Source: an uncultured Bacillales bacterium
Lineage (GTDB): Bacteria; Bacillota_I; Bacilli_A; RF39; UBA660
Reading direction: 5' to 3'
NCBI GenBank assembly: GCA_905206805.1
Contig: CAJLIR010000003.1
Span: 16,063-80,062, forward strand
Length of the DNA stretch: 64,000 bases
The first letter of the stretch is position 1. Each line of letters opens with the position of its first letter. Position numbers and translations under genes: made by a program. Shown piece after piece: positions 9,230-45,694 of this stretch. The notes beneath the pieces were generated by a model that worked only from the letters and a program-made list of their open reading frames with translations, had not been told where the DNA came from and ran no database searches.

Positions 9230-9254
9230 AATTTGTGGCTGAAATTCGTATCCA
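9230..9254 (+). repeat. left copy of the 25-bp direct repeat (candidate attL core) AATTTGTGGCTGAAATTCGTATCCA
   Basis: Identical 25-mer to 45670..45694. Next to it is a 16-bp inverted repeat TTAGTTTTATTTAGTC / GACTAAATAAAACTAA (9166..9216) holding TTATTTAGTC motifs that also occur twice beside the right copy. Confidence 0.6.
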
Positions 9255-9362
9255 TTCGTGTCCACTATAAATATATATCTAAACTGATTTATTTAATCAG
9301 TTTTTTTTGTGTTTACTTTGCTGCGTAGAGATAGCGTGGCAGATTAGAAAGGAGGAAAGTAA

Positions 9363-10193
9363 ATGAATAATTGCAAGGTAATAGCTGTTACCAATCAAAA
9401 GGGTGGAGTTGGAAAAACAACAACTACATTAAGTTTAGGTGTTGCTTTATCAAAACTTGGTAAAAAAGTTTTATTAGTAGATGCTGATCCACAGGGTGAT
9501 CTGACAACTTACATGGGATGGTATAATCAATATGATATTCCAGTTACAATTTCTGAATTAATGGAATATGAAATAAATGATAAATCAATAAATTCTAAAG
9601 ATGCTATATTACATCATAAAGAAAATATTGATTTAATTCCATCTAACCTAGATTTTTCTACAATGGAAATGAAATTGATAAATGCAATGAGTAGAGAACA
9701 TACTATGAGAAGATGTTTAGCAGACTTAAAAAAGAGTTATGACTATATTATAATTGATTGTATGCCATCACTTGGTATGATTACAGTAAATGCTTTAGCA
9801 AGTGCAGATAGAGTAATAATACCTGTTCAAGCACATTATCTAGCATTAAAAGGGATGGGAAATTTATTATCTACTATTTCAAGTGTAAGAAAACACTTAA
9901 ATCCTGATTTGCAAGTTGGTGGAGTTCTTTTAACTTTAGTAGATAATAGAACTAATTTAGCAAAGGAAATAAAAGAAGAATTAGTTGCAAACTATGGTAA
10001 TTTAGTTAAAATATTTAATACTCAAATACCTATTGCAATAAAAGCGGCAGAATCAGCTTCACAGGGTAAAAGTATATTCAGCTATGATAAAAATAGTAAA
10101 GTTGCAGAAGCATATTCTTCATTTGCTAAAGAGTTAATAAAAGATGAAAGAAATAAAACAAAAGATGCATCTTCCAGAGATGACAGTAGATGA
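9363..10193 (+). CDS. parA: ParA/Soj-family partition ATPase
   Basis: Deviant Walker A KGGVGKTTTT; downstream blocks VLLVDADPQGD and IIIDCMPSLG. RBS GGAGG precedes the start. Confidence 0.85.
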   Translation: MNNCKVIAVTNQKGGVGKTTTTLSLGVALSKLGKKVLLVDADPQGDLTTYMGWYNQYDIPVTISELMEYEINDKSINSKDAILHHKENIDLIPSNLDFSTMEMKLINAMSREHTMRRCLADLKKSYDYIIIDCMPSLGMITVNALASADRVIIPVQAHYLALKGMGNLLSTISSVRKHLNPDLQVGGVLLTLVDNRTNLAKEIKEELVANYGNLVKIFNTQIPIAIKAAESASQGKSIFSYDKNSKVAEAYSSFAKELIKDERNKTKDASSRDDSR

Positions 10194-11097
10194 TTTCTTT
10201 ACTACACAAGAAGAAAGAGATTTAAAAAGTAAAGAACACATTGAAATGATTAATATTAATGATATATCAGATTTTCCTAATCATCCTTTTAAAGTTACAG
10301 TAAATGAAGATATGTTAAATATGAGTAAGAGTATTGAAAAATATGGAGTGCTAGTACCGGTTTTAGTTAGACCAAAAGGAAATGGTAAATATGAAATGAT
10401 TTCAGGACATAGAAGAAAGAAAGCGTCAGAACTAGCAAATAAAGAAACAATACCGTGTATTATTAGAGAACTAAATGATGATGAAGCAACAATTTTTATG
10501 GTTGATAGTAATATGCAAAGAGAACTTATACTCCCAAGTGAAAGAGCATTTTCCTATAAACTTAAAATGGATGCTTTAAATCATCAAGGAAAGAGAAATG
10601 ATTTAACTTTGTGCCAAGATGGCAGGAAGTTGTCTACTGCTGAAATAATTGGTAAGAAACTCGGTGATAGTGAAAGACAAGTTTTTAGATTTATAAGATT
10701 AACTAATTTGATACCTGAATTGTTAAAAATGGTAGATAATGATAAACAAAACATATCACCAAGTATTGCCTTAAGTCCAGCTGTAGAATTATCATTTCTA
10801 ACAATTAGTGAGCAAAAATTATTATTAGAATGTATGGAATCTTTAGATTGTACTCCATCAGTATCTCAAGCAATTAAATTAAGAAAATTAAGTGAAAAAG
10901 GAAATTTAAACTTAGAAAGAATTGAAAGCTTGATGGGGCAAGAAAAACCAAATCAAATAGAAAAATATAAATTTAGTGCTGTTAAACTACGAAAAATACT
11001 ACCAAAAAATTTAAACAATGAACAAATCGAAGATTATGTTGTTAAAGCAATAGAATTTTATAACAAATATCAACGCAAAAAAATTCAAGAAAGATAA
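10144..11097 (+). CDS. parB: ParB-like nuclease-domain partition protein
   Basis: Carries GHRRKKAS, the ParB box-II GxRRxxA arginine motif, followed by an HTH. It overlaps the parA 3' end, a typical parAB arrangement. The exact start is uncertain (10144, 10165 or 10180). Confidence 0.7.
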   Translation: MKEIKQKMHLPEMTVDDFFTTQEERDLKSKEHIEMININDISDFPNHPFKVTVNEDMLNMSKSIEKYGVLVPVLVRPKGNGKYEMISGHRRKKASELANKETIPCIIRELNDDEATIFMVDSNMQRELILPSERAFSYKLKMDALNHQGKRNDLTLCQDGRKLSTAEIIGKKLGDSERQVFRFIRLTNLIPELLKMVDNDKQNISPSIALSPAVELSFLTISEQKLLLECMESLDCTPSVSQAIKLRKLSEKGNLNLERIESLMGQEKPNQIEKYKFSAVKLRKILPKNLNNEQIEDYVVKAIEFYNKYQRKKIQER

Positions 11098-44255: not shown

Positions 44256-45547
44256 CAAAAGAACAAATGCGGAAAGTTTATAATGATTATACAGTATATT
44301 CTGTATTAAAATTAAAAGATAAATACGGATTTAAGGTTAAGCTGACATTTATAGATGGACAGCAAGAAATAAGGCAAATAGGTGGTTTTAAAACAAAAAA
44401 AGAGGCAAACCTAGAAAGAGATAAAGTTGTAGCACAATTAGTCAACCACTCCTATGTTGTTTATCCAAAAATAAAAAGTAGTGAGTATTTTGAATATTGG
44501 TTAGAAATAGTGATGAAACCTAATTTAACATATAATAGTTATATGTCATATAGAAATGTAGTTAATAATTATGCTATCCCATATTTCAAAAATTACTACA
44601 TTAATCAAATAAATATGGGACATATTCAAAAATTTTATAATGAAGTTTCAATTAAATATAAATCGATAGCAAAGTTATCAAAAGTAGTATTAAATTCAGC
44701 ATTTGAATATGCTAAAAAGAATAATTTAATTAATACTAATCCAACATTAAATGTTAGACTTCCGAAAGGAATTGATACATCATATAATAAGGTTCAAGTA
44801 ATTGATATAGAAAAGACATTTAATATTGAACAGATAAAATTAATAATTGAGAAAAGTAAAGAAACACCAATATATTTACATATATTATTTGCGTTGTTGA
44901 TGGGATTAAGAAAGCAAGAAATTAATGGAGTAAAATATTCAGATATTGATTATGTTAATAGAAAATTATATTTAAAAAGGCAACTAGGAATTGATCCAAA
45001 TAAATCAAAAGAAGATTGTAAGAAAAAAACATACACGAAACAGGAAATAAAATTAAAAACCTTTTCAAGTGAAAGGGTACTTGATATACCTGATATGGTT
45101 TTTGAGGCAATACAAGAACAAAGAAAAATTTATGAAACAAATAGAAGAAGGAGAATAAATGATAAAACAACTCCCTTTACTGATTTAGGATTTATTTGTT
45201 GTTCTACCTATGGGCATCCAAGAAGTAAAGGGTTTCATAAAAGATATTATGATAAACTATTAGAAGAAAATAATTTACCAAAAATTAGATTTCACGATTT
45301 AAGACATACATATACCACATTATTATTAATGAATAATCACGATTTAAAGGCTGTATCAGAACTACTAGGACACTCATCAACAATAATTACATCAAGTACA
45401 TATTTTGACAAGAATAAAATAATTGTTGATTGTAATAAAGAATTAAATTCATTTATTGAATTAGTTAAACCAGATGAAAACTTGTATTCATCAGATACAA
45501 TAATAGACATAGATACAAATGATATTTTGGCAAAATATTTATATTAA
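44249..45547 (+). CDS. second tyrosine-type site-specific integrase, diverged paralog
   Basis: LRKQEINGVKYSDID; HDLRHTYTT; LGHSSTIITSSTY. It overlaps the stop of int1 by 7 nt, suggesting co-transcription. Confidence 0.85.
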   Translation: MLTKEQMRKVYNDYTVYSVLKLKDKYGFKVKLTFIDGQQEIRQIGGFKTKKEANLERDKVVAQLVNHSYVVYPKIKSSEYFEYWLEIVMKPNLTYNSYMSYRNVVNNYAIPYFKNYYINQINMGHIQKFYNEVSIKYKSIAKLSKVVLNSAFEYAKKNNLINTNPTLNVRLPKGIDTSYNKVQVIDIEKTFNIEQIKLIIEKSKETPIYLHILFALLMGLRKQEINGVKYSDIDYVNRKLYLKRQLGIDPNKSKEDCKKKTYTKQEIKLKTFSSERVLDIPDMVFEAIQEQRKIYETNRRRRINDKTTPFTDLGFICCSTYGHPRSKGFHKRYYDKLLEENNLPKIRFHDLRHTYTTLLLMNNHDLKAVSELLGHSSTIITSSTYFDKNKIIVDCNKELNSFIELVKPDENLYSSDTIIDIDTNDILAKYLY

Positions 45548-45669
45548 ATATATACATAATAATAAGGAAAGACTGTTGTAGCTTTCCTTGTTTTATTGTT
45601 AAATTAGTGTTAAAATAAGTTACTGGAAAACATTTAGTTTTACTTGGTTTTATTTAGTCTTATTTAGTC

Positions 45670-45694
45670 AATTTGTGGCTGAAATTCGTATCCA
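45670..45694 (+). repeat. right copy of the 25-bp direct repeat (candidate attR core)
   Basis: Identical to 9230..9254. Two TTATTTAGTC motifs precede it (45650..45669). An inverted partial copy (TGGATACGAATTT) lies at 45758..45770. Confidence 0.6.

Follow-up and report, generated by a model that had tools for sequence, protein, structure and literature searches.

Introduction

Integrative conjugative elements (ICEs) of the SXT/R391 group reportedly integrate into the 5' end of prfC. XerC and XerD, which act at dif, and TnpA and TnpB of Tn554 are heteromeric pairs of tyrosine recombinases. The dusA-specific integrases and islands, found by comparing many genomes, use one conserved 5' site in dusA and restore the 5' end of the gene; they come from Proteobacteria, have one integrase each and for the most part are prophages or mobilisable islands (Farrugia et al. 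2015, PMC4482086; for the Vibrio dusA islands, PMC8409611). ICEs of the type of Tn1549 and of CTn2, CTn4 and CTn5 from Clostridioides difficile belong to the Tn5252 superfamily sensu Ambroset et al. 2016 (PMC4701971). Here we analyze a stretch of 64,000 nucleotides, called the window, from an uncultured Bacillales bacterium (GCA_905206805.1, contig CAJLIR010000003.1, positions 16,063 to 80,062, forward strand). We conclude with high confidence that it contains a 36,962-bp ICE with a Tn1549/CTn4-type gene set that is site-specifically integrated inside the coding sequence of uvrB and restores the 5' end of this gene. Positions below refer to the window unless another contig is named, and L numbers denote contigs or loci that were compared with it.

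The element lies inside the coding sequence of uvrB

The exact 133-aa protein encoded at 8139-8540 was looked up in public assemblies and found on ten contigs of the same species. In five of these the site was occupied, with an 88-aa uvrB stub followed by parA, and in five it was empty, with an intact 649-aa uvrB at equal distance. Strains with and without the element therefore exist, as an earlier note on this DNA had anticipated. The genes on the right flank of the window adjoin the intact uvrB in the five empty contigs. In one of these (L004), positions 1864-10991 match window 1-9129 at 99.7% identity and positions 10737-16872 correspond to window 45837-51972, so that this contig equals the window with the element removed. 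The uvrB of the empty site is the window sequence up to 9119 joined to that from 46082. A 25-bp sequence that occurs near both ends of the element is absent from all five empty sites, as is the stub, showing that the element lies inside uvrB and that both 25-mers are internal to it. The earlier note had placed the insertion at 9230-45694, upstream of uvrB, and had predicted an empty site with a single 25-mer. The insertion is instead within the coding sequence, and the element reaches 118 bp further to the left and 379 bp further to the right.

The borders are also visible in other hosts. At the right border, two contigs from other host species (L013 and L014) match the window at 99.0-99.8% identity from the integrase genes Int1 and Int2 through the right arm to nucleotide 273 of uvrB. 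Directly past TACTTTGT, identity falls to 68-79%. Their Int2 is 99-100% identical to that of the window. For the left border we inspected ten contigs that encode exactly the ParA of the window, a protein indexed in 256 blocks of the assembly collection. All ten have a uvrB stub at a fixed distance, in at least five distinct gene contexts. Three share the left flank of the window, and the other seven represent different hosts that are 73-83% identical to it left of the core. On the element side of the attL core, identity to the window is at least 99% in eight of the ten and about 80% in the other two (L099 and L101). The same element, at least 99% identical, is found in hosts whose uvrB is 21-32% divergent at the nucleotide level and whose flanking genes differ. 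This level of identity runs past both 25-mers to TACTTTGT, which is at odds with the proposal that the 25-mer delimits the element and is its att site.

When the empty site is aligned with both junctions, the insertion point falls at codons 85-90 of uvrB, at TACTTTGT followed by NTCATA. In this three-way alignment attB reads ..CATGTTGAA TACTTTGT ATCATA TTATGATT.., attL reads ..CATGTTGAA TACTTTGT CTCATA GTATAGTAACC.. and attR reads ..CACGTATGT TACTTTGT ATCATA TTATGATT.. Within the window, the DNA similarity between the stub region and the full uvrB region ends abruptly at TACTTTGTnTCATA, at the attL and attR cores (Table 1). The crossover falls within TACTTTGT-NTCATA. The target DNA encodes the highly conserved YFVSYY motif of UvrB. 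From core to core the ICE spans 9112..46073 on the + strand and all of its large genes are co-oriented with uvrB.

All five empty sites have ATCATA past TACTTTGT. At attL, six same-species contigs have this hexamer too, whereas the window, L010 and L096 have CTCATA; the hexamer varies in other hosts as well. The base following TACTTTGT would lie within a mismatch-tolerant strand-exchange (overlap) region of about 6 bp and would be settled by heteroduplex resolution. In the attP arrangement a short inverted repeat, GTTAC(T)...(A)GTAAC, flanks the core 14 bp apart (9125-9135 and 46072-46081). Its halves are candidate core-type binding sites in an otherwise asymmetric core.

The element supplies the 5' end of uvrB

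Left of the first 25-mer lies an open reading frame (ORF), overlooked in the earlier note, that is the truncated 5' end of uvrB. This stub is identical to the 5' end of the intact uvrB in the empty-site contigs, and its stop codon TAG (9124-9126) is contributed by the element side of the junction. The native ribosome-binding site (RBS), start and codons of uvrB are stranded at 8848-9111, the host promoter region and the first 84 codons having been left behind with the stub. The uvrB promoter region, RBS, start codon and 91 codons (45548-46073) belong to the element, contrary to the view that uvrB keeps its own RBS. The coding part of this segment is 99.3-99.7% identical in L013 and L014, compared with only 68-79% for the rest of their uvrB. 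Because the 91 element codons join the remainder of uvrB in frame, the gene is kept intact: its product, the hybrid UvrB, matches the NCBIfam UvrB equivalog over its full length at 1063 bits (cut-off 743). The locus shows all features of integration that restores a 5' end, namely a crossover in the ORF, replacement 5' codons with an upstream region, a displaced 5' fragment and an intact gene.

The DNA similarity between the stub and the full uvrB also covers about 130 bp upstream. The resident region upstream of the stub resembles the right arm of the element in decayed form (Table 1), and an earlier element is the probable ancestor of the "native" uvrB 5' end in this species. In L101 (3230-3770), which is from another host, a displaced 95-aa stub and its upstream region form a complete window-type right arm with the 25-mer and no integrase. 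A second element variant is inserted at the core of that relic, which amounts to serial replacement. Taken together with the decayed arm in the window, the relic in L101 suggests that element-derived 5' ends become resident and are later displaced again.

We rejected SOS rewiring as a general feature: a LexA-box-like sequence, GAACTATTGTTC, precedes the native stub in L001 only, and none is present in the window or at 12 other left junctions. The LexA-box-like pattern GAAC-N4-GTTC, found at 9950-9961 of L001, also occurs in six of 70 element right arms (L044, L070, L077, L079, L080 and L084; Lachnospiraceae types). Some elements may bring SOS control with the uvrB 5' end and others may remove it.

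Related elements occupy the same site in many genomes

An Int2 alignment, used as the query against 185,579 species-representative genomes, retrieved 80 loci with Int2 identities of 42-100%. About 70 of the 80 have a co-oriented uvrB that follows the Int2 homologue after approximately 250-900 bp, and in L068 the distance is 2.9 kb; loci without a nearby uvrB are mostly decayed or end at contig ends. A near-full-length Int1 homologue is encoded directly upstream of Int2 in 64 of the 80 loci. The 71 attR cores (70 and that of the window) consist of TAYTTYGT, or TAYTTTAT in two, followed by a serine codon and TAY, which is YFVSY DNA. The hosts extend from low-GC "uncultured Bacilli/Tenericutes" metagenome-assembled genomes from the gut to Lachnospiraceae, and include the cultured Extibacter muris DSM 28560, Merdimonas faecis BR31, Oliverpabstia intestinalis and Lachnospiraceae bacterium 3-2. 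L001 and L002 have a stub, a decayed insert of 1.4-2.5 kb with both arms and then a full uvrB; L001 retains an Int2 remnant.

When the stub was used in a database search, the best 120 matches were all 87-154 aa long, many of them exactly 88 or 102 aa, on long contigs. The displaced stubs of this uvrB-targeting family probably account for thousands of 88-102-aa "UvrB" gene calls in metagenomes. The full-text literature that we searched holds no description of integration into the 5' part of uvrB, of truncated uvrB stubs or of paired integrases ahead of uvrB. The one recorded uvrB island, Seq1.31.uvrB, is assigned to the Helicase_C domain, a different site (supplement of PMC7192596). This family of uvrB-targeting ICEs and integrative mobilizable elements of human and animal gut Firmicutes appears to be undescribed.

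The 25-bp repeats lie on the arms of attP

The 25-mer, AATTTGTGGCTGAAATTCGTATCCA, occurs exactly twice, on the + strand, and has no further match at up to three mismatches; none is expected in shuffled sequences. On this point the earlier note was right. TTATTTAGTC (motif A) is present in exactly four copies, each less than 100 bp from a 25-mer, at 9171(+), 9201(-), 45650(+) and 45660(+). The count of four thus agrees with the earlier one, and the first copy begins at 9171 and not 9172. Shuffled sequences are expected to hold 0.74 copies, and four were reached in one of 100 shuffles. An inverted copy with one mismatch begins at 9211.

The 25-mer is a module made of a C part, AATTTGTGGCTGA, and a B part, AATTCGTATCC. 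This C+B module is found once on each arm, which makes the 25-mer look like a perfect direct repeat near, and not at, both ends. On the P arm the order is the Int2 stop, a hairpin, TGTTAAAAT, two direct A motifs, the 25-mer, two inverted B motifs, a -10-like box, the RBS, 273 nt of uvrB and the core. On the P' arm the core is followed by one direct and two inverted A motifs, the 25-mer, an extra B motif, an AT-rich hairpin and parA. The layout of the arms is kept across the family, and the three direct B copies of the window are all within the arms. The 4 nt that follow TTCGT in motif B differ from element to element. In 29 of 57 loci, across ten different variants, direct copies agree with inverted ones in these 4 nt, compared with 9.6% of cross-locus pairings. 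As far as sequence can tell, this covariation is good evidence that an element-specific protein binds these sites.

We infer that motifs A and B are arm-type sites for the integrases. This reading draws on the Int2 homologues, many of which have Arm-DNA-bind_4 (PF14657) in their precomputed annotations, and on the weak match of the window's Int2 to this domain. The suggestion in the earlier note that the TTATTTAGTC copies are arm-type sites is plausible; the 25-mers, which it took for att sites, are equally plausible as arm sites. attP would be more than 500 bp long, with motifs A and C+B repeated on both arms, and would assemble the recombinases.

Between the left 25-mer and parA there is a perfect 9-bp AT-rich hairpin (AAACTGATT/AATCAGTTT) followed by a T-run. 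It may act as a weak terminator and so reduce transcription that enters the element from the native uvrB promoter stranded on its left. Our terminator scan missed it because it has fewer than three G-C pairs.

The element encodes two adjacent integrases

Int1 and Int2, encoded by genes with a 7-nt overlap, share about 25% identity. Both keep the full R-K-H-R-H-Y catalytic set, and the two are adjacent and co-conserved. A PDB sequence search with the integrases gave distant Xer and Tn1549-Int matches only. The strict co-occurrence of Int1 and Int2 over a wide range of identity suggests a heteromeric recombinase, as in XerC/D or Tn554 TnpA/TnpB. Int1 and Int2 would carry out recombination, probably as a heteromeric complex, and a 66-aa HTH_17-like protein would act as the excisionase. 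The ORF for this protein covers the whole HTH_17 profile with E=2.7e-4, below the Pfam cut-off. It is a better candidate for this role than any other ORF, including a 72-aa ORF at 42539-42757. The 72-aa ORF overlaps the 3' end of the gene for a MazF/PemK-type toxin, and several family members also have it between MazF and Int1; it could encode an antitoxin and is not an excisionase. There is no recognizable MazE upstream of MazF.

Alternative explanations

Several observations weigh against parts of this interpretation. An exact-pattern search of JGI metagenomes and IMG/VR gave no contig with a circular, tandem or attP junction, in assemblies that rarely capture such junctions; the case for excision and transfer comes from the comparison of strains and of host species. 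The junction polymorphism could in part be host synonymous variation, although the five empty sites are invariant. The N-terminus of Int2 matches PF14657 with E=0.0036, below the cut-off, and that of Int1 has no Pfam arm-binding match. In a sigma-70 scan of the arms, promoter-like hexamers, including those ahead of the element-borne uvrB start, were no commoner than in shuffles. Finally, the separate roles of Int1 and Int2 and those proposed for the 66-aa protein and the arm motifs are deduced from sequence comparisons.

The 25-mer is perfect and near both ends of the element, and it could be taken for an att core duplicated just upstream of uvrB, with the stub as an unrelated older scar. The relic in L101, a right arm with a single 25-mer upstream of a resident uvrB 5' end, superficially resembles the empty site that this explanation calls for and could mimic a single 25-mer upstream of uvrB. 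However, the five empty sites, which have neither 25-mer nor stub, refute it for this species; the identity of at least 99% continues beyond both 25-mers to TACTTTGT in other hosts; the predicted excision scar (stub, one 25-mer, uvrB) is in no contig; and in L001 and L002 the two arms differ in sequence at the position of the 25-mer. We regard a duplicated 25-bp core as extremely improbable. If the borders are kept as we place them, the 25-mers and motifs could still be operators at which a regulator of the element (the helix-turn-helix (HTH) protein at 17285 or that at 39583(-), or ParB) controls the parA operon and the uvrB promoter. The distance from the 25-mer to the next start codon is nearly equal on the two sides, 109 bp to parA (9363) and 107 bp to uvrB (45801), and the single promoter-like match ahead of uvrB has its -35-like hexamer overlapped by an inverted B copy. 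The covariation of motif B points to protein binding and would fit a regulator as well as an integrase. What makes operators unlikely in our judgment is that the motifs flank the core on both sides, as in an attP, and persist in the decayed L001, where the regulators are lost and integrase remnants are kept. In addition, Arm-DNA-bind_4 is annotated in Int2 homologues and two classes of motif fit two integrases. We therefore prefer arm-type sites.

It is also possible, if rather doubtful, that Int2 alone integrates the element at uvrB and that Int1 serves multimer resolution or a secondary site, or is redundant. ICEs with a single integrase are the rule, Int2 adjoins the att site, and some decayed loci (L069 and L075) keep only Int2 fragments. 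Against this, the two genes are adjacent and overlapping, the pair is kept from 42% to 100% Int2 identity, the catalytic residues of Int1 are conserved in 65 sequences and the half-sites of the attP core are asymmetric beyond GTTAC..GTAAC. We prefer joint action of the two integrases, and we put forward a bolder form of it only tentatively. In this form Int1 and Int2 would be an obligate heteromer, each with its own class of arm site (A, TTATTTAGTC; B, TTCGT and 4 nt) and its own half of the asymmetric YFVSYY-DNA core, and this widespread ICE family, in exchanging the promoter and N-terminus of uvrB, would repeatedly rewire the expression of nucleotide excision repair and leave fossil 5' ends resident in many lineages. 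If this were true, the -35 of the element-borne promoter, overlapping a B site, would tie uvrB expression to the state of the element.

Gene content of the element and its flanks

Genes were assigned from Pfam and NCBIfam profile matches of the ORFs in the window (Table 1). The set expected of an ICE is present, comprising integrases, relaxase, coupling protein, VirB4-type ATPase and mating-pore proteins. This gene set and the same-species contigs bear out the initial description of an ICE that is site-specific for the uvrB locus and flanked by housekeeping genes. Most of the genes listed at that time were confirmed as well; the CHAP hydrolase was not, as no CHAP or other hydrolase domain was matched by any ORF at Pfam E<=5, and NCBIfam likewise gave none for the ORFs at 28129, 31855 and 33643. 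The relaxase gave weak matches, far below the cut-offs, to the NCBIfam SAG1250/MobP models and, when typed against PLSDB plasmid relaxases, distant matches only, at no more than 37% identity.

The adhesin gene contains internal repeats at 13099-15477 with offsets of about 273-291 bp and 81-92% identity, and the adhesin is 1220 aa long in this copy of the element and 1208 or 1299 aa long in others. The first of two ABC-FtsX fusions resembles lactococcin-972-type bacteriocin export ATPases (NCBIfam, below cut-off); the pair may be cargo for bacteriocin export or immunity. To the left of the stub, no remnant of an older integrase was found, and the ORFs at 1-8700 are mnmG, rsmG, noc/parB, mscL, a gene for an EEP-family protein and unknowns. 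All strains of the species retain no more than a short piece (65-108 aa) of a family-2 glycosyltransferase gene (4569-4895 in the window, 6561-6758 in L003 and L004); this apparent pseudogene falls in the variable stretch that separates mscL from uvrB.

Table 1. Positions of the element, its attachment-site features and its genes in the window.
Feature	Position	Strand	Remarks
Resident uvrB upstream region	8676-8859	+	aligns with 45564-45800; identical in empty-site contig L004
Resident upstream features			hairpin 8676-8693; TGTTAAAAT 8713-8721; degenerate 25-mer-like AATTTGTAATTCAGACTC 8763-8780; RBS 8848-8854
Displaced native uvrB 5' fragment	8860-9126	+	88 aa, ends NNHVEYFVS*; 78% aa identity to N-terminus of full uvrB
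attL core	9112-9125	+	TACTTTGT + CTCATA; host DNA to left; element begins GTATAG at 9126
Left arm (P' arm of attP)	9126-9362	+	at least 99% identical in other hosts; DNA left of core 73-83%
Left-arm A motifs			TTATTTAGTC 9171-9180 (+), 9201-9210 (-), 9211-9220 (-, 1 mismatch)
25-mer copy 1	9230-9254	+	internal to element; begins 105 bp right of attL core
Other left-arm features			25-mer 9230-9254; extra B copy TTCGTGTCC 9255-9263; AT-rich hairpin + T-run 9281-9303
parA	9363-10193	+	Pfam/NCBIfam
parB	10144-11097	+	Pfam/NCBIfam
Thioester (TED)/SpaA-repeat surface adhesin	11937-15599	+	Pfam/NCBIfam
Sortase	15574-16212	+	Pfam/NCBIfam
SSB	16469-16813	+	Pfam/NCBIfam
HTH regulator	17285-17527	+	Pfam/NCBIfam
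DUF3991-Toprim primase-like protein	17554-18525	+	Pfam/NCBIfam
HU	18937-19212	+	Pfam/NCBIfam
NikA/MobC accessory protein	19436-19765	+	Pfam/NCBIfam
MobA/VirD2-type relaxase, PF03432	19767-21143	+	clear PF03432 match
Mating-pore/transfer region	21118-33453	+	includes DUF3801/PcfB, TrbC-like protein, DUF4314, 532-aa protein without family match
VirD4-type coupling protein	22975-24768	+	Pfam/NCBIfam
VirB6-like protein	25124-25960	+	Pfam/NCBIfam
ArdC	25960-26874	+	Pfam/NCBIfam
PrgI	27619-27987	+	Pfam/NCBIfam
VirB4-like ATPase, CD1110 family	29510-31852	+	NF045971, 1029 bits against cut-off of 325, full length
Fused ABC-ATPase/FtsX-permease proteins (cargo)	34635-36572, 36569-38341	+	Pfam/NCBIfam
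S26 signal peptidase (cargo)	38946-39416	+	Pfam/NCBIfam
MazF/PemK-type toxin	42175-42549	+	upstream of integrases in many family members
Candidate excisionase	42843-43043	+	66 aa, HTH_17-like, 12 bp upstream of Int1
Int1 tyrosine recombinase	43056-44255	+	399 aa; R212, K261, H336, R339, H362, Y372 conserved in 65 homologues
Int2 tyrosine recombinase	44249-45547	+	432 aa; R221, K264, H349, R352, H375, Y385 invariant in 31 sequences
Right arm (P arm of attP)	45548-45800	+	99% identical in two other host species
Right-arm features, part 1			hairpin 45564-45589; TTGTTT-N17-TAAAAT 45588-45616; TTATTTAGTC x2 45650-45669; 25-mer 45670-45694
25-mer copy 2	45670-45694	+	internal to element; ends 379 bp left of attR core
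Right-arm features, part 2			inverted GGATACGCA 45735-45743; inverted GGATACGAA 45756-45764; TGGATA-16-AATAAT 45755-45782; RBS 45789-45795
Hybrid intact uvrB	45801-47771	+	656 aa, compared with 649 aa in empty site
Element-borne uvrB 5' coding segment	45801-46073	+	91 codons including Walker A GATGTGKT
attR core	46074-46087	+	TACTTTGT + ATCATA; host uvrB picks up again here

Comparison with described systems

The locus shows how a perfect, terminal-looking repeat can mislead border calling when the true att site is only 8+6 bp long and hidden in coding sequence. The uvrB-targeting family hits one of the most conserved protein-coding stretches in bacteria and creates a chimeric UvrB whose ATP-binding N-terminus comes from a mobile element. 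The paired integrases and the conserved 14-bp target could serve for site-specific insertion in gut anaerobes that are hard to engineer, and the existence of cultured hosts makes the question of heteromeric integrases in ICEs directly testable.

In its transfer genes the element is close to Tn1549 and the CTn elements, with which it shares a CD1110-family VirB4-like ATPase, a PF03432 relaxase with MobC/NikA, a VirD4-type coupling protein, PrgI, DUF3801/PcfB, DUF4314, ArdC and a sortase-anchored adhesin. It differs in its integration module: Tn1549 has one integrase with Xis and low target specificity, whereas here there are two integrases and a strict uvrB target, and these integrases are only distantly similar to Tn1549 Int (E of about 1e-4 to 1e-6). 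As with XerC/D and Tn554, two paralogous and catalytically complete tyrosine recombinases are encoded side by side, which here would act jointly at the core. Int1 and Int2 differ from the Xer proteins in being long and of integrase type, with extended N-termini and with arms on their attP, and unlike Tn554 the element has no TnpC equivalent. The predicted intasome resembles those of lambda and Tn916 in having repeated motifs, distinct from the core, on both arms of attP (predicted binding sites), a small HTH excisionase candidate and an element-encoded HU-type bending protein. It differs in having two classes of motif and arms at least 530 bp apart, an unusual distance, since the P arm is separated from the core by 273 nt of coding sequence.

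The dusA islands contrast with the uvrB family of gut Firmicutes, which is conjugative and has a paired-integrase module. The likeness to both SXT/R391 and the dusA islands is one of analogy, as the integrases of the window gave only generic matches at the level of Phage_integrase and XerC/D; to SXT/R391 the element has no detectable close relationship in sequence. SXT in prfC is similar in that an ICE with a tyrosine recombinase sits in the 5' coding region of a conserved housekeeping gene, keeps this gene functional by providing a new promoter and N-terminal codons, and leaves the displaced 5' fragment at the opposite junction. The present element differs in its uvrB target, Firmicutes hosts, Gram-positive type of conjugation and two integrases instead of one, and in that the replaced segment of uvrB contains a catalytic motif (Walker A). 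Integration at uvrB follows the same logic as that of SXT in prfC and of the dusA islands.

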